Shown: in pieces, positions 3,001 through 62,147 of the stretch
Position numbering within the stretch: position 1 is the stretch's first letter
How the letters are laid out: every line of letters starts with the position of its first letter
The notes under the pieces: generated by a model
Told to the model about the DNA's origin: nothing
What the model saw: only the letters and a program-made list of their open reading frames with translations
Databases searched by the model: none
Made by a program: the position numbers and the translations under genes
Source of the DNA: a virus
Lineage: Duplodnaviria > Caudoviricetes
DNA: 64,000 bases
Direction: 5' to 3' (one strand)
IMG/VR virus record: IMGVR_UViG_3300005077_000489
Coordinates: 128,001-192,000 of that record

Positions 3001-6000
3001 CAAGATCTTTTTTGGTAATTATGGGAAGGTTATCTATACAGGGAGGGAAGTGTGGAGTAAGAAGTCCTGGCATAATATCATATTTTCATTCGATTCCGAT
3101 GGGGACTATAAAGTATGGGAGGACGGAACATTAGATTATGAGTCTGGAACTCTATCCTCGACCATCTACCCACCGCCACCTGAGATAATTGTAAATCCGG
3201 CTGATATACATTATGATAACTATGACTTTAATAATTGTATGTATTATGGTTTACCTTGGATAGACGGTCAAGGTGCCGTGGGAGAGTTTTATTTGGACCA
3301 CGTAATGCATTTTAATAAAGTTTTTACAGATGAAGAAGCCTTTACAATATATAGATTAAAAGATAATTCGGAAGAGTGGGATGGAATATATTTTAATAGT
3401 CCACAGAACATAGAGTTACCTAGTAAATTAATATTTGATTTTGGACAAGATATCTCTGTTAATAAATATAGTTTTATTTTATCTAACACCCAAACATGGG
3501 CAGTCCCAAAGACCGAGTGGTTGTTAACTGCGTCTGGAGAGGATACTTGGGAGGTTTTGGATAATAATTACATTGAACTCGGAGAAATGCAATATATAGA
3601 GGGGGAATATATAGAAGAAACGAGGGAATTAACCATAAGTTCAGAAACCCTACCTCTTGCTATCTATTCTATTTATCCGGGCGAGCAGGTTATAGAGGTG
3701 TCGTTTGAGACTACAGAATATTTCAGTGGGGGTCACGACGGCACTTACGGTGGTATATATAATGACCCAGTACCAAATCCATTTTATGCTGCATACCCCG
3801 CAAATAGGACGTCCTTAATTGCAGGATATAATGTCTCTCAGGAGATGGTCAGGAATAATGAGTGGATTTCCTTGATACAAATAGTAAATTCGGTCAGCGG
3901 TTATATAAAATTTAAATTATGGAAATCCTCTCCTAACTCGTCTACGCATGTGATTGAGGATATCACCGATTTACTTCCTCTATCTGCCGGATCAAATAGT
4001 TATAATGTTCACTATAAGACTGGAATACCTTATCTAGGGGTTTCACCCACATTTTTTCCTGCTTTTTATGCTACTTGTGAAATAGACAGGCCGTATGGTG
4101 GGAGTGATCAGGACCAATATAATTATAAGTCCGGAGATATAACCGGCACTAGCACTGGCTGGACCAATATGGGTGGTTATTATACTTGCAGACTCCTTGT
4201 CTATTATCATGCTCCCAAATATAATTTAGGATTGGGTGCATCATCTAACTATTTTTATACAGCAGTTTCTTTTAATAATTTGTATGAGAGTCCTTTGACC
4301 CATTCTTATCCTTTACCTGTTAAAGATGTGATTCAGAATATCTATATTTATAGTAATAATGTTGTACAAGTAGATACGGAGGGCGTGTTAAGACTCACAA
4401 TTAAGAAAAAGATTCCTCCTCATAATCTTTTTACTGATTATGTGCACAATATTACTAATACTAAAGCATATCGACATTATGCTATAGAACTGGTAGGGAC
4501 CAATGATTGCAGAGAGAATTTAGAATTATCCGGTTTGAGAATGTTTGATACCCCTAGAGTTCCGACTGTCTCAGGTAATAGTCTTTCTGTTACCTCGGGT
4601 ATAGCTGCTAATAATATACTAGAATGCATTTCTGATAGTAATCCGGGTGATGCTGCTATAAGTTATGCTGTTTCCCTAGACAATATAGATTGGTGTATCA
4701 TGACGGCGAGCGGGTGGGAACCTGTCATATTAGATAAGGATGCTGTCTTGACACCTTCCGGTCTCTTCTTTAGTATAAATAATTGTGATTGGTTATCATT
4801 AGGTTCGGGAACGTTGTCTATTGCTCACAAGTTTGTAACTAATTCTAATTATTGTTATCCTGGAATAAATTCCTATAATGTGTTAGCCACAGACTACACT
4901 GCTTCAGGGACTGGCTCCTATATAACCTATAGTGGCAATATAACATATACAGTTCCGATGACTACTACTATTTCTAGTGATTGGTTGCATTATGCGTGGC
5001 AGAACTACGGAGATTATCATATTTTAAGCTATTTGGTTGATAGTGGTTACTTACCTATAGGTAGTGGTCAAGGTTATTTTGTAGATACATCTTATACGTG
5101 TAGCGGTTCTAGCCTAACACCATACATAATATCCAGGACTGATGATGTTATAAAAATAACTGCTTCTACTGTTGATGGTTTGAATATTGGTAACAAAATT
5201 AATATTGATACAGTATCTGGTTATACTATATATGAAGTAGAAGACATAATTGGAAATAATATAGTTCTTAATGCTCCTAAATTGTATGACGTTTTACCTA
5301 CTGATAGTTATTATAGACGCATAGTAACGCCTTACTATGAACTACGCGGGGAACAAGTTAATGTAAGTGGTACCGAAGTCAGGATTTCTGAGATGAATGA
5401 GGACTTAATAACTTTGAGTGGTAGTTTTAACTCAGGTGATATAGTAAATATTTCTTCCTCTAAAATTACTGGTAGTGGTATATTACCTACTACTATAAGT
5501 GGTAGATATTTTAATTTAGCAGACGGTGGTTACTACTTTTCTCCTGTTATGACATCTTTCTCGACCCCCGGTTCTTATACTATAGCTACTAATAAAATTA
5601 TAGCAGCGACGGAAGATTATACTATTAATGCGACTGATACATTTCCTAAGAAGATTTTTACTCTACCTAAAGATACAGTTTTGTTTGATACTATAATAAC
5701 AGTAAAGGATAGTTTTAGTGGCGATACTCCAGATACTTTTGGATATATAAGTAGCAATAAAACAGATAGTTATTACAACCGTTCTTATATAAATGATGGA
5801 ACTACGTTGACGAACGGGCGTTTAATAAGTCATTTTTGCTTATGGCAAGGAACGTCTAGTTATTATAGAGATGCTTATATGGGATTAAATATAAAAATTA
5901 AGTTGGTAAAACAAACTGGTGGCAGTAATCAGTATTATGATATACTAGACACAATTTGGGAAGGAGTAAACCCCGTATATGGTGATTTTTATGTTTATCT

Positions 6001-9000
6001 AGACCCACCTTTTAGAATTCCTTCCACCGGCATCCACCGTCTCTGCTACTGTTTAGGTGCTGCAAATTCTTTTTATGCCTTCGGGGTCTTGACTACTTCG
6101 AGAAATGACGGGTTACGCTACAAAGACGATGCTGATCCTACGGGTAACAATGTTTCATTTCTCTATCATAGCGGTGGTAATATGAGTTATAATTTAGTTA
6201 CTTACTATACCAGTTCCTACTCTGTTGGCACTCTGTCAAATGCTACCTATTTCACTGATACATTTAAATGGAACAGTCCACCCACGATTACCGGTTCAAT
6301 CGGTCCCTTTGCTACGGAGACAGATGTATATATGCACCGACAAGTTACTGTAGGACATACTGCAGGGGCATTTAATGTCTCCTTCGAGCACTCCGATTAT
6401 ATGTATCATTTATTTGATGGTAAACTGGACCCGGTTCCTACAGTAACTTCGGGTACCGCTTTATCTATAGATATGGGTTCAACATCTAATGTTGATGGGT
6501 ATAGATGGTACTATAGTACAGACGGAGAAGTAAATAGTCCCCTTATTTGGTCTATGTACGGTTCTAATGAGTTGCCTTATTGGTCCCATATAGCGGATGA
6601 AACTTCAGTCGTCGTAAATAGGGTATGGTCGTCTGTATTTAGTTTAACCCCCGGTTATAAGTATTATGGAATTAGATTTTACGATGATTATGAATTAGCC
6701 GAGATAGAATTTGTATACAGGAATAATACAACTACGTCTGGAATACATTTACTATCTACCACCAGCGGATGGGGATTTAGTTATGTGGGAAAATTATCGT
6801 ATATTGAAGCAAATACTTATGAACCGGGCGGTACAAGCATATACCATGCGATAAGTTTTGATAACTCAAATACATTTAAAATTTATAAGAATGGTAATTG
6901 GGTGGATATCGTTAGATATTTGGGGCAGTGGCAGTATAATGGAGGCGGGTGGTTTAATGCTCCTGATAATACTAAGTATTCCGCTTTTAGGGGAGCCTTG
7001 GATTATGGTCATACTTTTTCTAGTATCGAACTGGGGGGCATATTAGATGATGACTGGTACACGACTGGCGGGTTAACTTCTACTTCTGGTAGAATAAACT
7101 TTATTAATGCTATGCTGAGTGATGGCTACATAGTTCCATCAATTTCCTACTATGATATCTATTATACTGCACGGTCAGGGAATGTAACAAGTCAATGGTG
7201 GGCTAATTCTCTTATACCTTCTGGTTATGCCTATACAGTGGTATCTGGTTCTCCATATTTCTTTACAAACCACTATGATGTACCTTTGTATACAGATGAA
7301 ACTTTTGATGAATATCGTTACGACAGAGAGTATACTAATAATTTCAGATTATATACTGTAAATAGGTCTGCGGCTACGAGTGTTCCTTTGTACGAAATAA
7401 TGGTAACGGATGTCCAAACCCCAGATGATGCATATAGATTAGAATTATTTTCTCATGTCGCAGAGGATTGTGTTGTTGTCTGCTCAGGTATAACAGTGGA
7501 TACCGCCAAATTAACGGATAAAATACTACGGACTGGTGGGATACAAATTACTGAAAATAAATTGGTAGACTTAGAACTTTCTTCTATTCCCCGCAGCCGT
7601 GGTTTATTCTACGGCGATTTACGTCTGTATTTTGACACTGCTTTGGATAGACCTAGTTTAATAAGTGCGGCACCTTCCAGTAATACTTTGAATGGGAATA
7701 TTTCTACTAATACTTTTCTTCCTGTCTCCGTCTCCGGTATAGTCTTTAACTCAAACTACAATTTATCGGATGACCATTATTCCGTCTATTTTTGGGCTGA
7801 TTCTCCTGTCACTAAATTGGCTGTACGTACCGCTAATAAGAATAGTGTTGGTACAGGATTAGAAAGGATTACGGAACTAGGCGTCTTTCCTATAGAGTAT
7901 GAGGGTGGGTGGAATGTGCCCAGCGGTTTTAATTTATTAGAGACTGCCGAGTCTAAAAGTTATGTACATACAGCATTTTCTGCTTATAGGTACCAGTATT
8001 TATCTACACCGCATTTGGAGAGACTCTTTGATACTTCGATTTCTGGAGCCCTGCCAATCTTTGGTGGTTATTACATCGGGGTGGAGTCCTCATTAAATTA
8101 CTTTACAGGGAAGGCTAGGGAGTTACGTTTTGTTGTGGAAGACAACTCTGATATGACTATAGCTTTTTATACACAGACTTCAGGGGAACCGTCTTGGACG
8201 GAACGTACTCCTACTTGGAGTGGTTCTGGGTATTTTTATTACACGTTTGATATGCCTACTAATATAACCGCTACCCGGGTGGCTTGTTTAAATACTGCTA
8301 CAGGTGTTCGATTTGAAGATATAAAATGGTGTAGGTCTATACAATTAGTAAATGCTGGAGACGAGATAGACTTTGGTACAACTGGCGGCGAACCCGGTGT
8401 CGTAGACTTGCCTTTGTATTATGGATTACCAGAAATTGTAGAAATATTCAATAATAGTAGTCACGGGAATTATGCTAATGCTCGCGTTTTGCCCAGATTC
8501 TCTAATAACTATAACTTGGACAGAAATACCCAATTATCTGAAGATATGGTAAATTGGTATGGGTTAAATTCCGGTCTTTGTTTACCGGAGGATCTACCAT
8601 TCGAAACAGGAACTTTTGTTGGAACAGAAATATCCACTGAAGGAACTATAAAGTTAATAGATAGTGCTGTCTCAGGCACATGGACTTCCAGAGTCATAGA
8701 GGTATTAGATCCATCAAGTACAGTTGCTTATGTATATACAGAGAATAGTAGTTATGATGGAAGTTATGTTAATAAAGATTACAAAACAGTAATGAATATA
8801 ATAGAAGTTCGGGCTGCAGATGCCAATATTTCTCATCCTTTGTTCGTTACTGGTGCCGGGACGGAACCACAAGACGGGGATCAGCTACCATGGAAAGCAG
8901 TAGCTTTTGATACCAGCGGAAACCTATTATCTTGGGACGGCGGCAATCTAAACCGGGGTAGTCTCACCTATATAATAGGCGGACCACACAGGACTTATTC

Positions 9001-10420
9001 TTATTATTCAAGGCAGCCCTTGTGGCAGTTTTATGGGGCTATGAACTCTATGGGTTATGGGGCTTACACTGCTGGTAATGAGAAGGAAAGTATAGCTTTT
9101 GGACCCTACTTATTCTATAAACTTAGAACTATTTATCCTTATGATTATTCTCCGCCAAGTTATGCTATTCCTAATGAAAATAGTTTACATATTTATGGGA
9201 ACACTTACGAATATATGATACCTGTCTTTAATAAATCTTTGAGATATACTACTAAATATACTGATGGAGTAACTAAACCAACATGGCAATGCTTAGACGT
9301 GGTCCACAGAGAACTTCCCTTTTATGAGCGTTACCAAGAATATTATTTTGATGAAGGGGGTTTTCAACTAAGAAGTTTATTCACATTTAATGGTGATACA
9401 GATACTCCTGAGAGCACCACTGAAATAGACTATATTTGTTCTTTACCGGGGACGGTCGAAGGATTATTAGCGGATAGTATAAGATGTGCAGCATGCATAG
9501 ACGGGCAGGTTGGGGATTACTATAGTTGGTTTCATTATGCCTATACCGCAGAGGGGGAGGAAGAGTATAAAACTTTATTACTTAATGGTAGTGAAATAGT
9601 TCGGGAATGGACTAACATAGAAAGGAGTTTTAACTATATGGTAGAGGCTCCTCCAGAGAGTCCTCGCGGGTTTTGGGGGATAGGAGAAACAGCAGTCTAT
9701 TGGTATGAATATGATGGTACTAATTTAACGGAAGTTTTCTCAGTTAATACAGACGGTAATAAAACATTCAAACTACTAACTTTCGGGTATAATGATTATA
9801 ATAATAATTTATGGGTAGTAGACCTAGCAACAGAACGAGTTATTCGTATAAATTTTGAGCAGCATAGTGTAGATTATAGTAGAATAGTGGATGGAGCGTG
9901 TAGTGTTTATCCAGACGCCTTTGATGGCTCGGCTTATGTTTATGTTTTAAGAGACCCTGAATTTCCATCTAATGATTGTATAAAGTTAGTACATGCTACA
10001 GACTACGATTACCTAGTTCCGGAAGTGGTTTGTGCTGTACCAGGAATCGCTTTAATAGACCCTTACAATGTGAATCTATACGGACGCGGTCATTACCCGG
10101 AAGGTTATTACAACATCATGCCACAAGATGTTGTATGGAAGGAAGTAGCGGGTGCAGAGTGGAAACGTTATAGTTCCGGCAGCCCAACATTACCTAAAGG
10201 ACAGTATAAACAATTCCGGATAACCTTACAAAGGAATGATTTAGATTCAGTTTCACCGGAAGTGCAATATATAAGAATACCGGTTCCAGCAGTAATAAAT
10301 AAGATACCTTATCAAGGGTATAAGAAGATATATGTTGATACTTTACTGCGTAATGAAAATACCGCTTTAAATGCCGGAGATTATTCAGCAGACTTATTAG
10401 TATGGTGGCCGAGGGATTAA
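2..10420 (+). CDS. Giant virion-associated multidomain protein (>=3472 aa, 5'-truncated by the window): about 5 discoidin/F5-8C-like domains, LamG/ConA domain, three copies of a phage beta-sandwich, C-terminal beta-sandwich plus beta-propeller cassette
   Basis: The frame is open from base 2 (TTT GAC TCT AAT TAT...), so the TTG at 92 is not the true start. Discoidin motifs (WRAFD...YGSN...W...YRHYKLKIT); LamG motif (LAWHKFEE...SVSFWFRP...WHNIIFSF...LDHVMHFNKVFTDEE); propeller blades (NNLWVVD); C-terminal KQFRITL...LLVWW. Confidence 0.85.
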   Translation, partial: FDSNYGSWYDCVRLSEIEIADDIDILKGCGLIGEIPGFDAKYLLDSQSYTQYVSSGTIGLGALHIGLDARNRPKKLNRFQVKSISSAITDTSDDPWLRVSPKDILVYGSNIAKPTLNTDTGWTLITTTGIALPQAGAVYSSWVGVVASDNYTTPTIKSPTMTGYTTPAPYSASATSIRGTFHEPWRAFDRDISDSSYGWASSSILTLPQSLSIYLGSPIIINAIRLRPYSGVMYSSFPETIKMYGSNILSPSITNEAHWSEITDYISIPDPGGFAWTTWVYFDNPDEYSSYKITVFETITGTPDCGFNEIYLGYREKLFPNPADIPYRHYKLKITSSHGGTSSNVEFSDLNLDYDESSYYQQTVNYNIDFPVKIFDLPPKHEVTGVNITTISGYKGGYSEQVGSTVSGTYPISFITIVDRHNKLENDKSISQIGVSSDIGGRIYFRIFEEYTEGSTERFTIWDVFSVTHSGGGFQWFTLTDPYIIPSEGNHYLGWYQANNPRKMGVTGGEGKTSYQYGDYIGTNIYLPLHHTDFLPSLAVRYNSYFDLGITTNSGLLLNNFSPARNSKIFNSSNTLGPYYDETVSIYLGRPSPVVEPNTQGSMLVTIYYKEEGEDNYGLSQLVTIKDSSHKMYDHPINNAFDSDSKNYFSPEKWLDEYQNLRFMLRFYDPVYLEAFSVAPAQVSNGIDCLPDSLMIAGSEDYARLYDAEDWTDLYFDEDYSIPTISDWKPYIYFDDHTTQYRYYNFTLWHYGYPQKYGMLGGVRVVGVLPYPTYVTTSGLLTTVRSITGDGRDANEVRLLHKSGDRRYINNIWNTYTYNGRNEVSPGTVFLMGENNMSTTCPHPVSVIKEYNGNRNELPVSPVEFGGLNILAWHKFEEETGNFIDYSGNNINVVRVGNIIIEDGKRGKAAKIVDSDSPPKYGVFTLPHHLTEYSVSFWFRPVHDIYPGYPITFDIMGGWVSYGNVPGVWHISLGRTYLYVDSPYPFRQENTLPLGSSHSTKIFFGNYGKVIYTGREVWSKKSWHNIIFSFDSDGDYKVWEDGTLDYESGTLSSTIYPPPPEIIVNPADIHYDNYDFNNCMYYGLPWIDGQGAVGEFYLDHVMHFNKVFTDEEAFTIYRLKDNSEEWDGIYFNSPQNIELPSKLIFDFGQDISVNKYSFILSNTQTWAVPKTEWLLTASGEDTWEVLDNNYIELGEMQYIEGEYIEETRELTISSETLPLAIYSIYPGEQVIEVSFETTEYFSGGHDGTYGGIYNDPVPNPFYAAYPANRTSLIAGYNVSQEMVRNNEWISLIQIVNSVSGYIKFKLWKSSPNSSTHVIEDITDLLPLSAGSNSYNVHYKTGIPYLGVSPTFFPAFYATCEIDRPYGGSDQDQYNYKSGDITGTSTGWTNMGGYYTCRLLVYYHAPKYNLGLGASSNYFYTAVSFNNLYESPLTHSYPLPVKDVIQNIYIYSNNVVQVDTEGVLRLTIKKKIPPHNLFTDYVHNITNTKAYRHYAIELVGTNDCRENLELSGLRMFDTPRVPTVSGNSLSVTSGIAANNILECISDSNPGDAAISYAVSLDNIDWCIMTASGWEPVILDKDAVLTPSGLFFSINNCDWLSLGSGTLSIAHKFVTNSNYCYPGINSYNVLATDYTASGTGSYITYSGNITYTVPMTTTISSDWLHYAWQNYGDYHILSYLVDSGYLPIGSGQGYFVDTSYTCSGSSLTPYIISRTDDVIKITASTVDGLNIGNKINIDTVSGYTIYEVEDIIGNNIVLNAPKLYDVLPTDSYYRRIVTPYYELRGEQVNVSGTEVRISEMNEDLITLSGSFNSGDIVNISSSKITGSGILPTTISGRYFNLADGGYYFSPVMTSFSTPGSYTIATNKIIAATEDYTINATDTFPKKIFTLPKDTVLFDTIITVKDSFSGDTPDTFGYISSNKTDSYYNRSYINDGTTLTNGRLISHFCLWQGTSSYYRDAYMGLNIKIKLVKQTGGSNQYYDILDTIWEGVNPVYGDFYVYLDPPFRIPSTGIHRLCYCLGAANSFYAFGVLTTSRNDGLRYKDDADPTGNNVSFLYHSGGNMSYNLVTYYTSSYSVGTLSNATYFTDTFKWNSPPTITGSIGPFATETDVYMHRQVTVGHTAGAFNVSFEHSDYMYHLFDGKLDPVPTVTSGTALSIDMGSTSNVDGYRWYYSTDGEVNSPLIWSMYGSNELPYWSHIADETSVVVNRVWSSVFSLTPGYKYYGIRFYDDYELAEIEFVYRNNTTTSGIHLLSTTSGWGFSYVGKLSYIEANTYEPGGTSIYHAISFDNSNTFKIYKNGNWVDIVRYLGQWQYNGGGWFNAPDNTKYSAFRGALDYGHTFSSIELGGILDDDWYTTGGLTSTSGRINFINAMLSDGYIVPSISYYDIYYTARSGNVTSQWWANSLIPSGYAYTVVSGSPYFFTNHYDVPLYTDETFDEYRYDREYTNNFRLYTVNRSAATSVPLYEIMVTDVQTPDDAYRLELFSHVAEDCVVVCSGITVDTAKLTDKILRTGGIQITENKLVDLELSSIPRSRGLFYGDLRLYFDTALDRPSLISAAPSSNTLNGNISTNTFLPVSVSGIVFNSNYNLSDDHYSVYFWADSPVTKLAVRTANKNSVGTGLERITELGVFPIEYEGGWNVPSGFNLLETAESKSYVHTAFSAYRYQYLSTPHLERLFDTSISGALPIFGGYYIGVESSLNYFTGKARELRFVVEDNSDMTIAFYTQTSGEPSWTERTPTWSGSGYFYYTFDMPTNITATRVACLNTATGVRFEDIKWCRSIQLVNAGDEIDFGTTGGEPGVVDLPLYYGLPEIVEIFNNSSHGNYANARVLPRFSNNYNLDRNTQLSEDMVNWYGLNSGLCLPEDLPFETGTFVGTEISTEGTIKLIDSAVSGTWTSRVIEVLDPSSTVAYVYTENSSYDGSYVNKDYKTVMNIIEVRAADANISHPLFVTGAGTEPQDGDQLPWKAVAFDTSGNLLSWDGGNLNRGSLTYIIGGPHRTYSYYSRQPLWQFYGAMNSMGYGAYTAGNEKESIAFGPYLFYKLRTIYPYDYSPPSYAIPNENSLHIYGNTYEYMIPVFNKSLRYTTKYTDGVTKPTWQCLDVVHRELPFYERYQEYYFDEGGFQLRSLFTFNGDTDTPESTTEIDYICSLPGTVEGLLADSIRCAACIDGQVGDYYSWFHYAYTAEGEEEYKTLLLNGSEIVREWTNIERSFNYMVEAPPESPRGFWGIGETAVYWYEYDGTNLTEVFSVNTDGNKTFKLLTFGYNDYNNNLWVVDLATERVIRINFEQHSVDYSRIVDGACSVYPDAFDGSAYVYVLRDPEFPSNDCIKLVHATDYDYLVPEVVCAVPGIALIDPYNVNLYGRGHYPEGYYNIMPQDVVWKEVAGAEWKRYSSGSPTLPKGQYKQFRITLQRNDLDSVSPEVQYIRIPVPAVINKIPYQGYKKIYVDTLLRNENTALNAGDYSADLLVWWPRD

Positions 10421-15900: not shown

Positions 15901-16492
15901 TATGCGTATTAATCTACAGAAATGTTTGAATAATGATTCCTTGGCTATAGATTATGATAATATTATAGATGGAATAACAGGCGTGTTGCCTCACCCGTCT
16001 AACGGTTCTGCTTATGTATTTATAACAAATGAATTAGACCACCCGAACCAAGATATAGTTCGTATGGTTAATGTAGGACAGTCCGCAGGTAGCAGAGGAA
16101 AATATATGTGTGAAATTCCTGGATTTTGTTCATCTACCTACAGATATGGTGTACATTTCACTGGAATAGTTTTTGCTGGACCAATAAAAACTCATACCAG
16201 CGATCCTTTTTGGGGAACTACTGGTCTGACCTGGCAGCAATATTTTCCGGGAAAAACATTCATGCCACGGGGTAGATATAAACAATTTAGAATAAGTTTG
16301 CAGCGTTCGTCTAGTAGCTCTACTTCTCCTATACTTTATAGAATACGTATTCCAGAACCTATAGAGTTAGAACCCTTGGATAGGTTGCAAGAGAGACAAT
16401 TGGCTATAAAAACATTATTTAACAGAGTTACTACCTACGGTACCTACGATGTAAAATTATTAACTTGGTGGGGAAATAAGGAATTTGAATAA
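12989..16492 (+). CDS. Structural protein (1167 aa) with two nested discoidin-like domains and the shared beta-propeller C-terminal cassette
   Basis: Motifs MTSNTAPFPY...YKAFD...YGSN...YRHYRLKVT and AWKAFD...YKYYRLNIT; then SGYWSS, GNLWVID, GSAYVF, MPRGRYKQFRISL, LLTWW. Confidence 0.8.
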   Translation: MYNLLEHAYLQTCTSGISGYTLDSFTPSGILAIQNGTLIKTIANTKYVALEAIFGNDFLCDEARIYTSATGISYICTKEFISNVVAADGSYNNSTGYGTPQMTSAADPEPFSAYSDYQGWTDVTTAMTSNTAPFPYKVFTTSNTASGYKAFDHSTLNYWKASEHLPQSISYDFGSQYKVENYRFRNVNSTTRNPPKSFGLYGSNLVSPTLTDESNWTQLHYYYDLPDYGANSYSPWFAVTSPGLYRHYRLKVTALQYPSVSMYVDINEIEFSTGVDTAWKAFDQTVTSSSDCWTSDRSPLVGSGVNIVFGCGPTGKVFNKYALQGANVADAADRASPIDWTLKAALLTIDVPDINNPSHWVTLDTRTGATPAAQSTWTSFYTLSNATAYKYYRLNITNRYGTASYTRIGNIKFVESSRFGTTAYSDWRCYTPTRQDSYYSKVFEPPIGLEGLRFFYANSTGNNVTVSGFEALSYNDDSIITMSGIIANSSLVPNYFRFSFDTTEPKILNIKNYMDGSATPFIQLQYTNVYDIDRNVLFSTDYSTNYYKDESLWKGLESGFVIPEEYDWWLGTLSGTQEVSRTLRLVDTVVSGYWSSPVLDTGNVPSIAYVYGTEGIYHNNNYRLYSPSIEIRASESPPAEALFLVITTNNTHKNLMYHHKRVFIDSNGQVINKVECNLSTETGNKLWRIADNTFAGTELRYYGSVSSRGTASFLCPGMTTCGDTDPVQEMLNYSKWYNLCSCTMESSTYWNNGVTVSGIKWGDEQSVVYTKTFPIEGSTAFFTASILTSTSQAEEDRTIMTLAFQDGTITKFVKPMITVLGNKLLGDDYFEIIADVANNGWWVYLGGDIGKIYKIDPGSFDTVRIFMSENPLAETGAQDDIYYGYLYSLNITNTLKHLIEIPNPLYSGFWAFTDESIYLYDEVYDYDEPNLVVKRTFTQGSINTDTFSEIHTGACDAEGNLWVIDITQARLMRINLQKCLNNDSLAIDYDNIIDGITGVLPHPSNGSAYVFITNELDHPNQDIVRMVNVGQSAGSRGKYMCEIPGFCSSTYRYGVHFTGIVFAGPIKTHTSDPFWGTTGLTWQQYFPGKTFMPRGRYKQFRISLQRSSSSSTSPILYRIRIPEPIELEPLDRLQERQLAIKTLFNRVTTYGTYDVKLLTWWGNKEFE

Positions 16493-17037
16493 TGGCTGAA
16501 GTAATTATACAAAACTTAAGAAACTTAGATCAGATAGTCAGTGTTATGGTTACCATAAGAAAAACGATAATACCTGAACATAGTGGCGGCGGGACTATGT
16601 GGATTATAGAGGCATCAACAGACGAACCTGATGCTAATGGAGATTTAATTCCTCCGGTGCGGCTTTGGTCTTCTTCTTATGATACTCTTACAGAAGATAT
16701 AAATAGCATAATAAATGAATTGGCACAAAAAGTTAATTGGGATTATGAGCCAGATTATGAACCACCAGAGATAAAAAGTCATTGGCCTATTTCTGGTGCT
16801 ACTGGTATAAGTGTAGACACTAATATACGCATAAACATCACGGAGGACGCACCCTCTGCTGGCATAGACCTTAGTTCTATTCGTGTGCGGGTTAAGGGTT
16901 TCGATTTAACGAGCCAAGTAAGTATAGAAGGAGATGTCCGGTCTTGCTCAGTTTCGCTGACACCCGGTAGTAAATACCAGTCTGCCATCAATGATGACAA
17001 TTGGCAAGACTACGTCGAGGCAGAGGATGGACAGTAA
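16492..17037 (+). CDS. Small structural protein with a C-terminal Ig-like (SbsA/Big_5-type) domain
   Basis: DYEPPEIKSHWPISGATGISVDTNIRINITED...GIDLSSIRVRV resembles the Big_5 pattern; TAATG coupling to the upstream gene. Confidence 0.65.
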   Translation: MAEVIIQNLRNLDQIVSVMVTIRKTIIPEHSGGGTMWIIEASTDEPDANGDLIPPVRLWSSSYDTLTEDINSIINELAQKVNWDYEPDYEPPEIKSHWPISGATGISVDTNIRINITEDAPSAGIDLSSIRVRVKGFDLTSQVSIEGDVRSCSVSLTPGSKYQSAINDDNWQDYVEAEDGQ

Positions 17038-18367
17038 TATTCTGGCTATAGAGCCAAATATGGCTATGTTCTTAGAGAACCATGAATTAAAGTTCTTCAA
17101 TTTGATTTGGGGAGGGTGGCAAGTAAGCCAAGACCCTAGTGTTTCTTTCTTTACTAACACATTGCTCAGGAGAGGTACAGACGGTACTGTTATTCCTCCC
17201 TCCTGGCCTACCTCAGTAGAGATGCAAACTACAGTGGATAGTCTGGATTACAACGGCGTTAACTTTTGGTCAATACAGGCTATAAATAGTACGCCTTATT
17301 ATCCAGGATGGGTTGTTAGACGTTGGCAAACCAGCACAAAATCATATAGTTTGGAGATGAAACACTTTAAGTGTTTTCCTGGGTTTAGTAAAGGCTCCGC
17401 CCTAACCACAGAATATTATAATTTTACTTTGATGGTGGGGATCGATTCATCAAAGAATTATGCACAATTTAGTAGTCCTACCTATGACTATATCATGGAG
17501 AGGTTGTTGGTCGGGCAACAAATACGGATCGGTCCTAATACGCATGGAGATTATTACTGGGGTACCATAAGGACTATTACGAAATTCTCCGGGAGATGGG
17601 AAGTAGTTTTTAGTGAAAACTTTAACACCAGTTATGTGGCTGGCGAAGATTGTTTTACTGAAACGCGATTATATGTATTTGATGAGAGCGGAACATTAAC
17701 GACTTTGAACCCGGTAAACTTAAGTGTTATTAGCAGCACGCAGCAAGATTTCTATAAGGGAGTAACTGCGGCAGGTTTTAGTGTAATAAATAACGTTCCG
17801 GAGATAAACTTAGGTAATAGGACTAGAGCATTATTTTTTGTAAGTGGGATGGTAGTTTTTTGTAAGAGAGTGGAAGATTTGGGTCTGACCATCGCAGCAA
17901 AATCAATTCCCCTGGGTTACTATGATGATGCTAATTCATTTATACCTATTTATGAATTAAGAATCCGTAATGATGACCCTGAGGATATTAATAATCATCC
18001 TCAGTTCTACTTCTTACAACGGGACTATCGAGACTCCCATACTTCTGGTGTGTCTAGTTTTCCTAGTAGTACATATAATTATGTTATTTTGAAAGTAGAA
18101 CGAGAGAATGCTTTTATGGTGTTGAACTTATATCCCGAGTTCGTTATGCCTAGTGGTTATATAGATTGTAGATGTACTTTGTTGGATGATTACAGATTTC
18201 CCGTTAGTAGTGCCCCTGTGTACTGGTCTGCTACTCCCGGGGCTGGTAGTTTTATTACTGCCACCGGGGTAGTAACTAATTCTAGCGGGGTAGCATATGC
18301 AACTTTTAGCGGAGGGCAGGTTATACCTTTTCCTGCATATTTAACTGCTATGACGACGGCAATGTGA
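17027..18367 (+). CDS. Putative structural protein with a C-terminal invasin/Big_1-like Ig domain; paralog of 19829..21370
   Basis: GAGG RBS at 17017 favours the ATG at 17027. SLDYNGVNFWS...VVRRWQ matches LQYDGINFWS...ILRRWR in the downstream paralog. C-terminus CTLLDDYRFPVSSAPVYWS...TNSSGVAYATF. Confidence 0.7.
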   Translation: MDSNILAIEPNMAMFLENHELKFFNLIWGGWQVSQDPSVSFFTNTLLRRGTDGTVIPPSWPTSVEMQTTVDSLDYNGVNFWSIQAINSTPYYPGWVVRRWQTSTKSYSLEMKHFKCFPGFSKGSALTTEYYNFTLMVGIDSSKNYAQFSSPTYDYIMERLLVGQQIRIGPNTHGDYYWGTIRTITKFSGRWEVVFSENFNTSYVAGEDCFTETRLYVFDESGTLTTLNPVNLSVISSTQQDFYKGVTAAGFSVINNVPEINLGNRTRALFFVSGMVVFCKRVEDLGLTIAAKSIPLGYYDDANSFIPIYELRIRNDDPEDINNHPQFYFLQRDYRDSHTSGVSSFPSSTYNYVILKVERENAFMVLNLYPEFVMPSGYIDCRCTLLDDYRFPVSSAPVYWSATPGAGSFITATGVVTNSSGVAYATFSGGQVIPFPAYLTAMTTAM

Positions 18368-18416
18368 TTATTTCTAAAAAAGATAAAGCAAATTACTATT
18401 ATCTTTTATGAAATAA
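18368..18416. repeat. Imperfect ~18-bp inverted repeat (hairpin) immediately upstream of the omegaRNA
   Basis: Left arm TTATTTCTAAAAAAGATAA (18368-18386). Right arm TTATCTTTTATGAAATAA (18399-18416), whose reverse complement is TTATTTCATAAAAGATAA. 12-nt loop. Confidence 0.8.
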
Positions 18417-18590
18417 ACAGCGGGCTCTGGATAAGTGCAAGAGCAGAAGTTAATTTAATTATTCTACCAACAGATGTTGTTCCAGTCTGTTGCTCTAGAA
18501 CTTGTAACTAAGGGTAGCGGAAACGTGAATGTGTTACAAGTGTAAAAAGTTTAATTAACAACCGCGAGGAGCAACTAACTCTACGGAGGA
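18407..18590 (+). ncRNA. IscB omegaRNA (5' guide of ~16 nt plus scaffold from ~18423)
   Basis: Scaffold starts GGCTCT...AAGAGCA, as recalled for characterised IscB omegaRNAs. Visible stems: GCTCT 18424-28/AGAGC 18440-44; GTTAATT 18449-55/AATTAAC 18553-59; AACAGA 18469-74/TCTGTT 18486-91; ACTTGTAAC 18500-08/GTTACAAGT 18533-41. Alternative pairing AGAGCA 18440-45/TGCTCT 18491-96. Ends with CGAGG and the GGAGGA RBS. Guide boundaries are inferred. Confidence 0.8.
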
Positions 18591-19822
18591 CTTAAATGTC
18601 AAATTTAGTTTATGTAATTAATAAGAATGGGAATCCTTTGATGCCTTGTAAACCTGCTAAGGCTAGGCATTTACTAGAGGCTGGTAAAGCTAAGGTTATC
18701 AAGCGTATACCTTTTACAATTCAACTGTTATGGAATTGTGAAGAGAATGTGCAGCCTATAACTTTAGGAATTGATAAAGGTTCCAAGATTACTGGTTTAT
18801 GTGTTGTAGAAAGTGACAATAGCAAAGTGTTATTTCAAGCAGATTTAAGACATCGTCTAGACGTTAAAGAAAAGATGGAGACGCGTAGAGAGCATCGTAG
18901 GTCTCGTAGGAACCGTAAATGGTATAGACCATGTAGGTTTTTAAATCGCAGTAGTTCTAAACGTATAGGAAGACTACCTCCTTCAATTAGAACCAATGTT
19001 GAGGAAGTAATCAGGGTAGTTAATAAGTTAAAAGTGATGTTACCTATAACCAGTATTGTAGTAGAAGATGTATTAGTGGATATAAGAAAATTGAATGAAC
19101 CCATAATTAAAGGTAAGCAATATCAAGTTTCTAATCGCCTATCTGAGAATTTGCGGCTAGCATGTTTAATGAGAGATAATTTTGTTTGTTATACGTGTAA
19201 GTCTAAAGGAGAACTACATGCTCACCACATTGTATGGAGGTCTAAGGGTGGTTCAGATACTATTACTAATTTGATTACATTATGTAAGAAGTGCCACAAC
19301 AAGGTACATAGTAATAAATTAACATTGGACTTACGAGGTTCTAACAATTTTAAAGACCGTATAGCACAACGTACAATGCAAGGTAAATCTTATCTTTATA
19401 GACAATTAGGAAATCCTGGGTTAGTTTATGGATATGAAACCGCTGAGCAGCGTAAGAAATTACAATTGGATAAAACACACATGATAGATGCATTTATAAT
19501 TGCTGGTGGTAATAAATATACAACTGATAACTCTTATTTCATAAATTTCAGACTTAGGCAAACTAGGCGACAATATTATGATTTGCCTAGAAAAGGGGTG
19601 GGTAGAGTTAGATATCAAGTCAATGAAGAATTAAATGGATTTAAAAAAGGGGATGTCGTTTTGGTAAAATCTTTTGTGAAACAAATTAATTCGATTCGTA
19701 GTGATGGACGCTTAGGTTTTTCTAAAAGCATAAATAGTGGACCACAGACGGCACTACCAAAACATTGTATATTACTAGAACGCCAGAAGACAGTTGTCTT
19801 TAATACAGTTAATATAAGGTAG
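18423..19822 (+). mobile_element. Non-autonomous IS200/IS605-superfamily IscB (OMEGA) element, no tnpA
   Basis: omegaRNA plus iscB inserted between two paralogous structural genes; no Y1 transposase in the window. Ends are approximate. Confidence 0.7.
18596..19822 (+). CDS. iscB: IscB RNA-guided endonuclease (PLMP, split RuvC, bridge helix, HNH), 408 aa
   Basis: N-terminal NGNPLMPC; RuvC-I LGIDKG; Arg-rich RREHRRSRRNR bridge helix; RuvC-II IVVED; HNH CYTC...HAHHIVWRSKGGSD...NLITLCKKCHNKVH; RuvC-III THMIDA. GGAGGA RBS at 18585. Confidence 0.95.
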   Translation: MSNLVYVINKNGNPLMPCKPAKARHLLEAGKAKVIKRIPFTIQLLWNCEENVQPITLGIDKGSKITGLCVVESDNSKVLFQADLRHRLDVKEKMETRREHRRSRRNRKWYRPCRFLNRSSSKRIGRLPPSIRTNVEEVIRVVNKLKVMLPITSIVVEDVLVDIRKLNEPIIKGKQYQVSNRLSENLRLACLMRDNFVCYTCKSKGELHAHHIVWRSKGGSDTITNLITLCKKCHNKVHSNKLTLDLRGSNNFKDRIAQRTMQGKSYLYRQLGNPGLVYGYETAEQRKKLQLDKTHMIDAFIIAGGNKYTTDNSYFINFRLRQTRRQYYDLPRKGVGRVRYQVNEELNGFKKGDVVLVKSFVKQINSIRSDGRLGFSKSINSGPQTALPKHCILLERQKTVVFNTVNIR

Positions 19823-19828
19823 GTAAAA

Positions 19829-21370
19829 ATGGCTTATGAAAACATTAGGTTAGATGTGGCTTCTTTTTGTGCGGCGGGTGAGTATTTCTATGAAATGAAA
19901 CCTGCTCCCACTAATATGCTTATACAGAAATCGAGTTACGGCGATTCTGTAATGGCTTATCCATTTTCGCACGAGATAGATTTATCCCTTGCAGGAGGAG
20001 CATTCTTATCTCTTCAGTACGATGGAATAAACTTTTGGTCTTTGGAGAAAAGATATATAGATGGACAAGGAACAGAAAAGGAGAGGATCTTAAGGAGATG
20101 GAGGATAGAGAACTTTGTTTGTAATCTAAAAGACTCTTGGCGTATAAGAGCACAAGGAATAGAGAGTATAAATGGAGAAGCCTTTGCCATAGAACATTAC
20201 TATAATACAATTACTACAGCAGTTGGTCCTGGAACAGGTAATCTAGATAGGATTTATTTGACATATCCGCGTGCATCCTTTTTCCACGTTACTGATAAAT
20301 TGACTTTAAAGTCGGCTACTCAGGATTATATACAAGATGTTGCTGTTGCTACTACGCCTGATAATTCAACGGTATGGACTGCAGAACCTGTAACTAATGT
20401 TTACTTACCCGGGGATTCTGTTGTTTTACGAAGGGATTTATACTTCTTTAATAATCAATCACCCAGCGAGGGTTCAGCCGGTGCCGCTCTTTACCATTTT
20501 TCGGTCCCGCACATAACTGCTGCAGATCCTACTGCTCTTAATGAATTAACCTATAAAGGCTGCCATGAAAGTGGGGTTTATGAACAGACTAAGTGTGCTA
20601 CCTTCATAACGACCTCTGGACAGTCAGACGCCATTAATCAGTCATATTACACCGGGTTAATAAGTTATGTTAGAGGGCAACAATTATTGTTGAAAAGACC
20701 AAACTTACCCGGGGGCGGATTACAGTATCCTGGTCCAAGTTCTGCTGGAGTTGTAACAACTGGTTTTGATTATGTCGGTACGAATACAGAATTCAGAGAT
20801 AATGTGTCTTCTATGATTATGGACAACGCTCTAAAGAATGATAGGATTAATCTCTGGACTATTTATGACTTAGGTGCTTCTGTGCATCCTACTAATTGTG
20901 TTAGTGTTAATATCTATAGATTGCAGATGGGTTATACGTATGGAGCACTGGAAGGGAGCTGGTCTACCTATAATTATGTTGTATCGGTTCTGAAACCACT
21001 TGTAACCTCTATTGCCTTGACTGCAGAACCCGCTTTAGTTGTTGCTAACGGGGTAGACAGGGCATTTATATGGGCTACAGTAAGAGACCAATATGGTGCG
21101 GCATTAAATTATAAACGTGTCGTGTTCGGACTACAGGCTACGGATGACGATGCCGAGGGTTATTTTATTTGCCCAGACTCAATCTCATCTTGTGTCCCTG
21201 GTAGTTTTACGTGGTTAGACAGCCCACCGCACAAAGAGGCTGAAGTATTAACAGGGAGTCAATCGTCTTATCCTGGCGGACCCCCGGCTATGGGTGGTCA
21301 AGCAGTCATAGAGTGGAGGTCAGGAACTAAGGCTGGGTTAGTTACGATTGTTGCTATAGTACAACCGTAA
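19829..21370 (+). CDS. Putative structural protein with a C-terminal Big_1-like Ig domain (513 aa)
   Basis: Paralogous N-terminus to 17027..18367. C-terminal IALTAEPALVVANGVDRAFIWATVRDQYG is invasin-like. Confidence 0.7.
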   Translation: MAYENIRLDVASFCAAGEYFYEMKPAPTNMLIQKSSYGDSVMAYPFSHEIDLSLAGGAFLSLQYDGINFWSLEKRYIDGQGTEKERILRRWRIENFVCNLKDSWRIRAQGIESINGEAFAIEHYYNTITTAVGPGTGNLDRIYLTYPRASFFHVTDKLTLKSATQDYIQDVAVATTPDNSTVWTAEPVTNVYLPGDSVVLRRDLYFFNNQSPSEGSAGAALYHFSVPHITAADPTALNELTYKGCHESGVYEQTKCATFITTSGQSDAINQSYYTGLISYVRGQQLLLKRPNLPGGGLQYPGPSSAGVVTTGFDYVGTNTEFRDNVSSMIMDNALKNDRINLWTIYDLGASVHPTNCVSVNIYRLQMGYTYGALEGSWSTYNYVVSVLKPLVTSIALTAEPALVVANGVDRAFIWATVRDQYGAALNYKRVVFGLQATDDDAEGYFICPDSISSCVPGSFTWLDSPPHKEAEVLTGSQSSYPGGPPAMGGQAVIEWRSGTKAGLVTIVAIVQP

Positions 21371-21371
21371 T

Positions 21372-23357
21372 ATGGAAAAGTCTATATTAATAAGAGGCCC
21401 AAGTGAAAAAGAGAGTAATCACAATGTCCAGAGTTATACCTACGGGCATGAGTGGGGAGAGTCTGTAGAATATCTAGACCCCGATAATGATGCGGTTTAT
21501 AGTTATTATAGAACTAATGGACCTCCGGATTATAAGATTACAGGAGAGTTTGATACTCCGTGGGATACCCAACTGTACATACCACAGGGGATTCTACTAG
21601 CTCCACGCGATGACCCTGGTCAAACCATGACATACGGAAGAAAGCCCTCCTATGTACGTATTATAGCTAACAAAGGGGCTTGGCCACATATAACGGAGGA
21701 AGAAAGAACATGGATACAATCACATCTGAGCGAGGTCACGGATGAATTCTTATGCCCTGTTTTTTGGGGGTTGGACTTTGTTTATTTCTTATATCGCGAT
21801 CCTTCTCTTTACGGAACTGTTTGTAATCCTGGTGGTTATTTTACTATTAGGACGCAAGAAGAAATAGAAACACATCAGATGATAGATGCACCTTGGAATG
21901 CAGTTAACATAGAGACAATGACCATAAGTGGAACTCTAATCAGTGGTTCTACTACTTTAAGTATAACCATGCCTTGGGTTGATACTGGCGGTCTTACAGG
22001 CTTCTATATGGATACGAGTTTTTTAAATACTGGAGGTTACTTCTTCCTGGGACCTAATGCTCAGGGAGAGTCTGGTTCAGCTCGACTTATTTCTATAATA
22101 GACAGTGAAAATGTAGAAATTACTCCCACACCTTATACCTTTCAACATGGAGATGCTATATTATATAAAGACTCCTCTATAGAGAAAGGATATGATTTTC
22201 ATGTACCCGAGGGATCTGGAGCACATATTCTGGGAGGCGGGGAATACACAACATCAAGCGGAGGACACAGTACTGAAACCTTAATAGAGTTGAGAGGAGG
22301 ACTAGAGACTTTTACTATAATAGAGACTTTTATACCTATTCCTTGGGCTATACCGGCTCCCTATTCTATTCGCAATGTACCATTCACCAATATTTGGCAG
22401 CGATTTCAGAATCCCTCCGTTCCATTAAACTGGGATACATTAATCTATAAAGTTAACGGGTTAGATATTACCCCAGATGTAGAGTTGACACTTATCCCGG
22501 GGGGAGCCGAATTATTTTATGACCCTCCAACAGATTTTCCACTAGCTAGTAAGGTCTACATAGATATTTATGTTTCTGCTTCTCCTAGTATCCTGAGAAC
22601 TTTTGCGGATAATGTAATAGTTGGTACAGAATATGTGAATATTGCTGATGGTGATGCTTCTATTATACAACCAGGAGGCTTCGTATTCTTAGGACCAAAT
22701 AATCTGGGGCAGAGCGAATCAAAAGAAGTTCGGGGGGTAGTTAATGATACGCAGATATTGATATATGCGACAGAATATGAATATTCTGCTGGAGACGAGA
22801 TTCTATATACATATGATGATTATCCTTTATCTATAAAGTATTGGTTCGATATCGTAGATGATTTTAAGCCACCTACTATATATAATATGTATCCTTCACA
22901 AGGAATGGTGAACATAGATGTAAACCACTGGATACGATTCGAGATAAGGGATGAGGGTTTGGGGGTGGATATAAGTTCCTTAACCTTTACTGTAAATAAC
23001 TTAGTTGTCATACCTACTATCTATAAGTATAGTGATTATTGGTATCAAGTTATTTATGAACCACCCGTACCTTATTATTATAACGCTCCTATTGAGTGTT
23101 TTGCAACTGTCACAGATTTATCTAGTCAGAGAAATAGAGCCTTCGCTGTTTGGAGTTTTAATACAGGTCCGTCTGTCACTCCAATAATAATGAATCCTGT
23201 TCCTGGCTATTGTGCATTTCCAGTACATGCAAATGCTGATGTGAAGTTAGACGTTTTTGCTAGGGAAGGAGGAGCTAATTGGCCCTCCATGACTTTTACT
23301 ATAGACCAAAAGAAGTATGAATACTATAGTTATCCGAAAATCTATAGGTTTAAATAA
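21372..23357 (+). CDS. Putative structural protein with two internal beta-barrel repeats and Ig-like domains (661 aa)
   Basis: Internal repeat GGYFFLGPNAQGES...GDAILY / GGFVFLGPNNLGQS...GDEILY. Big_5-like DDFKPPTIYNMYPSQG...IRDEGLGVDISSL. Confidence 0.65.
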   Translation: MEKSILIRGPSEKESNHNVQSYTYGHEWGESVEYLDPDNDAVYSYYRTNGPPDYKITGEFDTPWDTQLYIPQGILLAPRDDPGQTMTYGRKPSYVRIIANKGAWPHITEEERTWIQSHLSEVTDEFLCPVFWGLDFVYFLYRDPSLYGTVCNPGGYFTIRTQEEIETHQMIDAPWNAVNIETMTISGTLISGSTTLSITMPWVDTGGLTGFYMDTSFLNTGGYFFLGPNAQGESGSARLISIIDSENVEITPTPYTFQHGDAILYKDSSIEKGYDFHVPEGSGAHILGGGEYTTSSGGHSTETLIELRGGLETFTIIETFIPIPWAIPAPYSIRNVPFTNIWQRFQNPSVPLNWDTLIYKVNGLDITPDVELTLIPGGAELFYDPPTDFPLASKVYIDIYVSASPSILRTFADNVIVGTEYVNIADGDASIIQPGGFVFLGPNNLGQSESKEVRGVVNDTQILIYATEYEYSAGDEILYTYDDYPLSIKYWFDIVDDFKPPTIYNMYPSQGMVNIDVNHWIRFEIRDEGLGVDISSLTFTVNNLVVIPTIYKYSDYWYQVIYEPPVPYYYNAPIECFATVTDLSSQRNRAFAVWSFNTGPSVTPIIMNPVPGYCAFPVHANADVKLDVFAREGGANWPSMTFTIDQKKYEYYSYPKIYRFK

Positions 23358-58063: not shown

Positions 58064-58840
58064 ATGAATCCATACGAGATTTTAGGTGTAAGAAAAGATG
58101 CTAGTGCTGAAGAAATAAAAAAAGCATATAGGAAATTAGCCCAAGAGACGCACCCCGATAGAAATCCTGATGATAAGGATTCTGAGGAAAGATTCAAGAA
58201 GATTTCTAGTGCTTATGATATACTTTCTAATCCTGAAAAGAAAAGACAGTACGATAATCCTAGTTTTTTTAATGGTCCTTGGGGTTTTAGTTTTGAATCT
58301 TTTATTAGGCGACCGCCTGCCCCGCCGGTTCCCAGACACGGGACCCTCCGCGGGAATGATATTAATTTAGGTATAAATGTAAATCCTTTTCAATTAATAC
58401 TGGGAGAACTTCTTACTATAAAGTACAAGAGACCGACGCGTTGTAATATATGTGATGGTCACGGAGCCGACATAGAGCATTGTCCTGCGTGTGAAGGTTA
58501 TGGTTTTATAAGAGAAGTGAAGGAAGCCGGTTTCCAGAGGATGGTGAATGATTATGCTTGCGATTCTTGTTTATCTACGGGTATAAAAAAGACAAATGTT
58601 TGTAATAATTGTAAGGGTAGCGGCTTGATTATTAGTGATACAGAAGTAAGTTTTAATTTAAATCAGGGAAATCATAAAGAAATAATCATACCGGAGTATG
58701 GGGGTCATGGTCCTATGCAGGGTCCCCCTGGTAATCTGGTTATTTCATTACAACTTGTCTTTCCTAGTGCCGACCAGATTAATGATAAGGCTAAGGAACA
58801 TATTCGTAAGGCTATTGAACATATATATAATAAGAGGTAA
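58064..58840 (+). CDS. dnaJ: DnaJ-like co-chaperone (J domain plus four CxxCxGxG-type repeats, shortened C-terminus)
   Basis: MNPYEILGV...HPDRNP...AYDILS; [32 protein letters not shown]; GPPGNL. Confidence 0.9.
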
Positions 58841-60962: not shown

Positions 60963-62147
60963 ATGGAAACTAGAAATAATGTTGAGGTAAGGATACAAGG
61001 TATTAGAATTGTTGGACCAGTATTCGATGGCAGTGGTTATGCCCAAGGGATTCGTAATTATATTCGTGGGTTATTCAATGCAAAGGTCCCTTTTCATATT
61101 TTGCCTATCTCATTCGAAAAGGATCGCCCTGAACTCACAGACATAATTAATATAAATGGACAGGAAATAACTGAACAAGATTTCTTACGTTCTCTTTGCC
61201 ATCAAATGGAATATGATGTTAATTTTGTTAGGTTAAGCCCCGAAATAGCTGTACAATTTTTGGACGATAAAGCAATTAATATATGTGCTTGTGCGTGGGA
61301 AACAACACGATTAGATCCACATTGGGTAGATTGTTGCAATAGGTTTGATGCTATTTTTGTTGAGAGCCAGTGGTTGGTGCAAGTATTTACAGATTCCGGA
61401 GTTAAGAAGCCTATATATTGCGTACCGAATTGCGTGGATGTTAGTAAGTATACCCTAAAGGATAAACCTAATATGGATAAGACTTACCAGTTCTATGCTA
61501 TTATGCAATGGACAGAACGTAAGAACGGAATTGGTTTATTGAAGTCTTACTTTAACGCCTTTACTCCTAAAGATGATGTGGTATTAATTCTTAAGACTTA
61601 TCTTACCCGGGTAGAAGCAGGGAAAGACCAGAAGACACAAATTGTAGAGCATATAAATAGTTTAAAACGTTCCCTTAATTTACTTACTGGTTACCCACCA
61701 GTCTATTTGATTACTGAGAAGTTGACCAACGAGGCTCTAATTAAATTACATGAAGATTGTGATTGTTATGCAATGTTAGACCGAGGGGAGGGCTTTGGTC
61801 TCCCATATATGGACGCGTGTGCTGCTGGCAATCCTATTATTGCTCCTAACTTTGGTGGAACTAGAGAATTCCTTAATGAAACTAATAGCTACTGTGTAGA
61901 CGGTCAACTAACTTACGTTGATAATATGATGTGGAGCAATTTTTATCGCGGGAACCAAGCATGGTTTGAGCCTAATTTACTGACTGCTTCTGAATTAATG
62001 AGACATGTATATGAGAATAGAGAAGAAGCCTTTCAGATGGGTTTGAATGCCAGACAGAATGTTGAAGAGAATTTTAATAGAGAAGTAATTACTAATAGGT
62101 TACTCGGTGCGTTGGCAGAAGTAGTGGGTAGAAAGAGAGGCATGTGA
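60963..62147 (+). CDS. GT-B glycosyltransferase (GT4-like)
   Basis: SGYAQG, AWETT, VPNCVD, QWTERKNG, RGEGFGLPYMDACAAGNPII...GG..EF. Confidence 0.88.
   Translation: METRNNVEVRIQGIRIVGPVFDGSGYAQGIRNYIRGLFNAKVPFHILPISFEKDRPELTDIININGQEITEQDFLRSLCHQMEYDVNFVRLSPEIAVQFLDDKAINICACAWETTRLDPHWVDCCNRFDAIFVESQWLVQVFTDSGVKKPIYCVPNCVDVSKYTLKDKPNMDKTYQFYAIMQWTERKNGIGLLKSYFNAFTPKDDVVLILKTYLTRVEAGKDQKTQIVEHINSLKRSLNLLTGYPPVYLITEKLTNEALIKLHEDCDCYAMLDRGEGFGLPYMDACAAGNPIIAPNFGGTREFLNETNSYCVDGQLTYVDNMMWSNFYRGNQAWFEPNLLTASELMRHVYENREEAFQMGLNARQNVEENFNREVITNRLLGALAEVVGRKRGM

Follow-up and report, generated by a model that had tools for sequence, protein, structure and literature searches.

How does an RNA-guided nuclease gene come to lie between two conserved genes in the tail-gene block of a large phage, and by what means could it spread from there? 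The question is raised by a 64,000-nucleotide stretch of DNA (the window: bases 128001-192000 of the 211,229-bp IMG/VR virus record IMGVR_UViG_3300005077_000489, CheckV completeness 86%), in which a cassette formed by an omegaRNA of the HEARO family and an iscB gene is inserted. IscB is the small ancestor of Cas9. We consider it rather probable that this cassette derives from an IS200/IS605 ('ISC') element, is no longer autonomous, and acts as an RNA-guided homing unit against sibling phages. The locus is a well-resolved natural IscB-omegaRNA unit in a phage, with an exact left boundary, three empty sites in relatives and a second site in a fourth relative. Phage-borne IscB as such was already known, more than 16% of HEARO/IscB fragments being viral or prophage-derived (Goltsman et al., PMC9755519); what this locus offers is a well-documented anatomy, a corrected assignment of the guide and a clear loss of the TnpA-dependent end. 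No paper dealing with IscB in jumbo phages turned up in the literature searched.

The IscB protein and its omegaRNA

The iscB open reading frame (ORF) encodes a full-length and intact IscB, a point on which the family models, the solved relatives, the conserved residues and the predicted fold are in accord. The NCBIfam model NF040563 ('RNA-guided endonuclease IscB') matched residues 5-302 of the ORF with 299.6 bits against a cut-off of 175, and Pfam detected RRXRR (203 bits) and HNH (43.1 bits, residues 198-239). By sequence, the closest solved relative was HfmIscB (9k2z, E 8e-53), followed by TbaIscB and OgeuIscB. The RuvC residues D60 (RuvC I, GIDKG), E157 (RuvC II, VED), and H295 and D298 (RuvC III, HMIDA) occupied invariant columns in an alignment of 25 homologues and lined up with GIDDGS, EDV and SHSNDA of HfmIscB. 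The HNH and zinc residues C198, H210, H211, N225, C230, C233 and H234 were also invariant among these homologues and are present in the window protein, in agreement with a previous reading of the window made without database searches (the sequence-only reading), which had found all the RuvC and HNH residues in place. Within the PLMP motif (residues 14-17), M16 and P17 were invariant and L15 was kept in at least 90% of the homologues. The AlphaFold2 model had a mean predicted local distance difference test score (pLDDT) of 72, and its ten best matches in the PDB were all IscB or IsrB complexes, led by 8csz_D (E 1.5e-23). The C-terminal residues 317-408 are outside the coverage of the hidden Markov models, with pLDDT below 50 at 321-342 and 399-408; this region is conserved in the clade and the fold of the whole chain matches IscB.

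A search among 5.8 billion proteins returned thousands of homologues of 390-430 aa with 55-68% identity, and by this comparison the window IscB is a standard-length member of a large clade and no truncated copy. Its domain order and fold are those of the OgeuIscB, HfmIscB and TbaIscB complexes (PDB 7utn, 7xht, 8csz, 9k2z, 9k30), from whose chains it differs by a fold-alignment identity of only 17-29% and by its length (408 aa against 495-540). It also resembles the HEARO nucleases, such as MG35-1 (Goltsman et al. 2022, PMC9755519), in being a compact Arg/Lys-rich IscB (R+K 19%) with a 5'-guide HEARO RNA, while the window locus provides an analysis of insertion and empty sites of phage copies that is absent from that paper. 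The idea of a new compact genome-editing nuclease, put forward in the sequence-only reading, is possible, the 408-aa protein and the 221-nt scaffold making a compact tool, but there are already thousands of similar proteins of about 410 aa at the identities given above.

Upstream of the gene, the Rfam HEARO model (RF02033) matched positions 18405-18579 of the + strand over its full length with 81.9 bits (E 2.4e-16), 1.1 bits short of the gathering score of 83. The covariance-model check that had been proposed for this region therefore gave a match, and it was the only HEARO match in the whole record, which also holds a single IscB. The 5' part of the Rfam alignment is misleading, and the bacterial copies of the clade define the element much better. 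In Tengunoibacter, four copies have one and the same sequence over a span that opens about 50 nt upstream of the motif ACCAGCGGGC and closes about 62 nt beyond the stop codon; outside these limits they are unrelated. They have in common with about 30 other bacterial copies the start ATAGTTCCTAAA, whose counterpart in the window, according to a clade omegaRNA alignment of 32 sequences, is ATTATTTCTAAA, at 18367/18368. On this alignment the scaffold follows immediately on the TGA stop (18365-18367) that closes the 458-aa upstream gene, which places the left boundary to the base, and an earlier estimate of 18423 for the omegaRNA start gives way to this position. The omegaRNA-side end of the IS200/IS605 (ISC) transposon (RE in Meers et al.) is present, with ATTATTTCTAAA in the place of ATAGTTCCTAAA.

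RNAalifold, applied to the 32-sequence alignment, predicted 58 pairs, and compensatory changes occur in 41 of these. All but two of the pairs (56 of 58) are formed by the window, so that the stems are intact, as had been stated from the window alone, and the window sequence folded by itself adopts the same architecture (z = -2.1). Its P1 helix departs from the consensus UAGUUCC/GGAACUA by three double changes that keep the pairing (helices in Table 1).

Two observations can be added on the RNA. The IMG/VR contigs L033/L034 (116 kb and 70 kb) carry an omegaRNA of this clade with the compensated P1 UGGCCCC/GGGGCCA; this copy appears to be decaying, because its IscB frame is open for 139 aa only. 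In the window, the last omegaRNA hairpin (18579-18589; CUC-UACG-GAG, with a UNCG-type loop) extends into the Shine-Dalgarno sequence of iscB (GGAGG, 18585-18589), and RNA folding could therefore limit the translation of IscB from the same transcript.

Insertion site, ends and guide

Relatives of the flanking genes were sought in IMG/VR and in metagenomes, the metagenome scan being alignment-based. The two flanking genes are separated by 9-10 nt in three related phages, L004 (a 545-kb phage), L005 and L049, and by 1,461 nt in the window. An example of the empty junctions is TAA-GGAGGAAAT-ATG; when positions 18368-19815 are removed from the window, the junction becomes TGA-AAGGTAGGTAAAA-ATG, closely like the empty sites of the relatives. 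The search for an empty site in related phages, suggested by the sequence-only reading, was thus successful, and the aligned junctions show a presence/absence polymorphism at one site among related phages. IscB was found in none of 40 other, more distant metagenome loci (0/40). The insert has a G+C fraction of 0.342, against 0.40-0.42 in the flanking genes, no terminator-like sites were found on its + strand, and the ribosome-binding site of the 513-aa gene (AGGTAGG) is preserved immediately behind it. The scan of IMG/VR with this downstream 513-aa gene as single protein query found nothing, and blastn of 16000-22500 against GenBank phages gave zero matches. A look-up of public sequencing runs for 17600-20600 likewise returned none.

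A fourth related phage, known from the fragment L008, has a second insertion site, at which an IscB with 68% identity and its omegaRNA lie between homologues of the 661-aa and 385-aa genes, two genes downstream relative to the insertion site of the window. The 661-aa/385-aa junction measures 14 nt in the window and is also empty in L004, L005 and L049.

The opposite end of the cassette is different from that of the bacterial copies, in which a conserved tail extends about 50-60 nt beyond the stop codon and ends in ..TTCAATAC(C). This tail is the opposite transposon end, the site of the hairpin bound by TnpA. From the iscB stop to the next ATG there are 6 nt in the window, 15 nt in L008 and 4 nt in L006, and in P0004 and P0008 the next gene, as read from gene tables, overlaps iscB. 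Considering that only 6 nt remain before the next gene, the hairpin-bearing end is missing from the window copy, and this loss probably rules out that the cassette is now mobilised by a TnpA transposase. No intact tnpA was found in the window or in the 211-kb record; this refers to the phage record, and the host may hold a copy. The only Y1-transposase match in the record is a 70-aa C-terminal TnpA remnant. The absence of tnpA noted in the sequence-only reading is consequently correct for the window and must be qualified for the record, where the remnant stands beside an intact tnpB. The latter belongs to a second OMEGA-type element (L178; bases 365-1689 of the record, - strand), about 145 kb away, in which an intact 371-aa TnpB (OrfB_IS605 and Cas12f1-like TNB domain) lies directly downstream of the TnpA remnant (IS200-type Y1).

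As regards the guide, it corresponds in known systems to the 5' "spacer" region of the HEARO/omegaRNA, inside the 5' untranslated region of iscB (Goltsman et al., PMC9755519), and the omegaRNA is bounded by the transposon end (Meers et al., 10.1101/2023.03.14.532601). Since the guide is 5' of the scaffold and the scaffold starts at 18367/18368, the guide would be formed by the 3' end of the upstream gene, that is, by its last 16-24 nt including the TGA stop (about 18352-18367). The stretch 18407-18422, previously taken as the guide, is really the 3' strand of P1 with the start of the long-range helix, and that assignment missed by about 40-55 nt. No second perfect site for the putative guide exists in the 211-kb record; when up to 3 mismatches are allowed, one extra site appears, at 3 mismatches.

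Other placements were considered and rejected. A guide directly 5' of CAGCGGG (18401-18416 or 18407-18422) is excluded because some 50 nt ahead of the motif are common to the four Tengunoibacter copies, and also since the clade alignment places these bases in the P1 hairpin. The stretch 18389-18404, which follows if the Rfam local hairpin UUUAU-GAA-AUAAA is taken as P1, is excluded on the same copies and alignment; it has no further site in the window or in IMG/VR. An 8-nt direct repeat, TTATGAAA (18406-18413 and 19834-19841), was considered as a target duplication and judged to be chance or part of P1, its first copy being the conserved (C/T)ATGGAACTAA motif. Finally, a target-adjacent motif (TAM) was sought in the right flanks of the bacterial copies, with no clear consensus beyond a terminal ATAC(C), which may be either the element end or the TAM.

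Table 1. Coordinates of the cassette, its parts and the adjoining genes in the window.
Feature	Position	Strand	Basis or remark
Upstream phage gene, 458 aa	16991..18367	+	ORF list; weak Ig-like Pfam Big_1 match, 24.8 bits, below cut-off
Putative omegaRNA guide, 16 nt, GACGACGGCAATGTGA (up to 24 nt from 18344)	18352..18367	+	immediately 5' of the clade-conserved start
Whole inserted cassette, ~1,448 bp	18368..19815	+	not in three related phages
omegaRNA (HEARO) scaffold, 221 nt	18368..18588	+	Rfam match, 32-sequence clade alignment, RNAalifold
P1 helix	18368-18374 (UUAUUUC)/18410-18416 (GAAAUAA)	+	consensus fold
Inner 8-bp helix, AAAGAUAA/UUAUCUUU	~18379-18386/18399-18406	+	stands in for the inner hairpin of the bacterial copies
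Long-range helix	18420-18423/18562-18565	+	consensus fold
Hairpin	18424-18428/18440-18444	+	consensus fold
Long stem	18449-18458/18550-18559	+	consensus fold
Further omegaRNA helices	18463-18466/18496-18499; 18468-18475/18485-18492; 18500-18508/18533-18541	+	consensus fold
Terminal hairpin	18579-18588	+	consensus fold
iscB, 408 aa: PLMP domain, split RuvC, bridge helix, HNH, C-terminal domain	18596..19822	+	family models, homologue alignment, fold
Region with the right boundary	19799..19816	+	possible remnants of TTCAATAC: TTTAATAC 19799-19806, TTAATAT 19809-19815
Downstream phage gene, 513 aa, weak Ig-like domain match	19829..21370	+	orthologues in L004/L005/L049 with 75%/61%/66% identity

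How the cassette may spread

The function of IscB/omegaRNA and the model of empty-joint cleavage are established (Altae-Tran et al., cited in PMC9755519 and PMC13565253; Meers et al.). Meers et al. (10.1101/2023.03.14.532601) report that IscB elements preferentially share the orientation of the gene upstream and that the nuclease cuts the empty donor joint, and a 2026 review (PMC13565253) regards 'non-restorative homing' without TnpA, into phages or plasmids that co-infect, as theoretically possible. In the mechanism that we propose, read-through of the tail operon would yield an RNA in which the last 16-24 nt of the upstream gene are joined directly to the 221-nt scaffold, and IscB, made from its own Shine-Dalgarno site, would then bind this guide-scaffold RNA. 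The carrier phage would be immune, because the 1.45-kb insert parts the guide-matching sequence from the downstream TAM. Target and TAM would be adjacent, and could be cut, in a sibling phage that co-infects and lacks the insert; recombinational repair from the carrier genome would then copy the cassette in (homing), or the rival would simply be damaged. TnpA-independent homing is compatible with an intact unit that runs co-directionally in the tail-gene block, with the empty sites, with the second junction occupied in L008 and with the loss of the hairpin-bearing end. To our knowledge, RNA-guided homing independent of TnpA has been demonstrated only for TnpB on plasmids, and for phages it has been proposed. 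The defined donor and a reconstructable recipient make such homing between co-infecting phages directly testable.

Several results weigh against this reading. The orthologous empty sites of L004, L005 and L049 differ from the guide at 5-6 of its 16 positions, and the exact guide 18-mer occurs in IMG/VR in 7 contigs, all of them unrelated coding matches of the 'DDDGNV' type. The homing against IscB-less relatives suggested by the sequence-only reading thus has its empty sites, but none of those fetched carries a guide-matching sequence, and with no such sibling target found, homing is something that we infer. In addition, homing accounts for spread at one site and not for a lineage found at two different junctions. 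The L008 element starts about 85 nt past the upstream stop codon, against flush in the window, and therefore insertions are not always as clean as that of the window; and the right boundary is placed to about 15 nt only, because TTCAATAC-like motifs occur at both 19799-19806 and 19809-19815.

It is unlikely, in our opinion, that the cassette is an ordinary non-autonomous IS605-type transposon, moved by peel-and-paste with a host TnpA acting in trans and using IscB only for 'restorative' homing after excision. Such a transposon would fit an omegaRNA-side end that equals the transposon end of the clade exactly, the short TTCAATAC-like motifs at 19799-19815, the two insertion sites among related phages, and the presence of the clade in multiple copies in the genomes of Tengunoibacter, Kouleothrix, Thiomargarita and Parabeggiatoa. 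It fits poorly with the 6 nt left after the iscB stop, against the conserved end of about 50-60 nt in the bacterial copies, with the single copy in the phage and with a record that has no intact tnpA.

An immobile passenger, inserted once and carried vertically with an activity irrelevant to phage or element, seems to us about equally improbable. All the catalytic and zinc-binding residues and 56 of the 58 RNA pairs are retained, several of the latter through compensatory changes, and the relatives at 62-70% identity are intact, a pattern indicating purifying selection that acts on protein and RNA alike. In favour of a passenger are the lack of a matching target in the fetched relatives or in IMG/VR, the single copy, and a G+C fraction below that of the neighbours, as expected for foreign DNA.

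Least probable of all is a domesticated weapon that the phage retains mainly for destroying close co-infecting phages (marker exclusion or killing) and not for spread: a place in a presumably late-transcribed operon would give expression during co-infection, the free-standing homing endonucleases of T-even phages act so (PMC13565253) and the related 545-kb phage has 3-4 further IscB genes, but the guide is the insertion flank, as in any IscB element, and not picked from a rival, and sequence alone cannot separate a weapon from homing.

Taking up again the homing cassette, its relationships were explored with a quick maximum-likelihood tree. The window IscB, L006 and the group L008/P0003-P0010 branched basally, in no firm order, outside a clade of 52 rows (Shimodaira-Hasegawa-like approximate likelihood ratio test 94) that included all the rows from named bacterial genomes, along with metagenome proteins. 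The nearest relatives (L008, L006, P0003-P0010) have 62-70% identity and are also intact, and at least 3 of the basal members are carried by phage-like contigs. It is tentatively possible that the window IscB with L008, L006 and P0003-P0010 forms a phage-adapted lineage that has lost the end recognised by TnpA, has been shortened on its 3' side to the point of abutting or overlapping the next gene, and has spread among large phages purely by RNA-guided homing with occasional transposase-free jumps to new junctions. Such a lineage, if real, would be a natural RNA-programmed gene drive in viruses. The 545-kb relative has its 3-4 other IscB genes (loci L166-L169) at unrelated positions and with 38-43% identity, so that different IscB clades have entered this phage group on repeated occasions. 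A limited pattern scan of IMG/VR found 25 contigs with IscB, and HEARO scored above the gathering score in 9 of the 12 tested.

Related systems and genomic neighbourhood

Among the known systems, GstIscB/ISGst of Geobacillus stearothermophilus (Meers et al., 10.1101/2023.03.14.532601) is also a non-autonomous unit of the IS605 type, in which the omegaRNA precedes iscB and a transposon end forms the boundary; it takes its guide from the flanking DNA, is co-oriented with the upstream gene, and its nuclease cuts the empty joint. The phage cassette differs from it by having no hairpin-bearing opposite end, by being single-copy in a phage genome without intact TnpA, and in that its homing would take place between genomes (non-restorative) and not after excision. 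The free-standing homing endonucleases of T-even phages (SegF, SegB, Mob; PMC13565253) are similar in being nuclease genes placed between conserved phage genes, variably present and expected to be active in co-infection. They recognise their targets by protein, whereas recognition by the window IscB would depend on an RNA guide and a TAM, and the sequences are unrelated except for the HNH motif.

In this large uncultured phage the cassette is located in the tail-gene block, a place in which genes for tail and fibre proteins are to be expected. All 29 window ORFs of at least 120 aa are on the + strand and the IscB cassette has the same direction, so the description of the element as lying co-directionally inside a phage structural operon holds. 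Large proteins with weak Ig-like domain matches come after the first open frame (2-10420), and a replication block with a sliding clamp, a UvsX/RecA-like protein, a DnaB helicase and a primase occupies 51-58 kb of the window. No tRNA genes were found in the window. Adjoining the replication genes, positions 58064-58840 encode a DnaJ-type co-chaperone with a J domain (95.6 bits) and a CXXCXGXG zinc-finger domain. A 591-aa ORF at 62144-63919 matched PHROG 559 'HNH endonuclease' (E 3e-113) and also PHROG 3339 'homing endonuclease', labels that may mislead, because Pfam gives a weak GNAT match only.

Orthologues of the upstream 458-aa gene in L004, L005 and L049 have 47-54% identity. The genes on the two sides of the cassette resemble distant paralogues, with the common motif Y(N/D)G(V/I)NFWS and a direct BLASTP E value of 1e-4. 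Both match the same genes in remote relatives, many of which carry 2-4 tandem copies.

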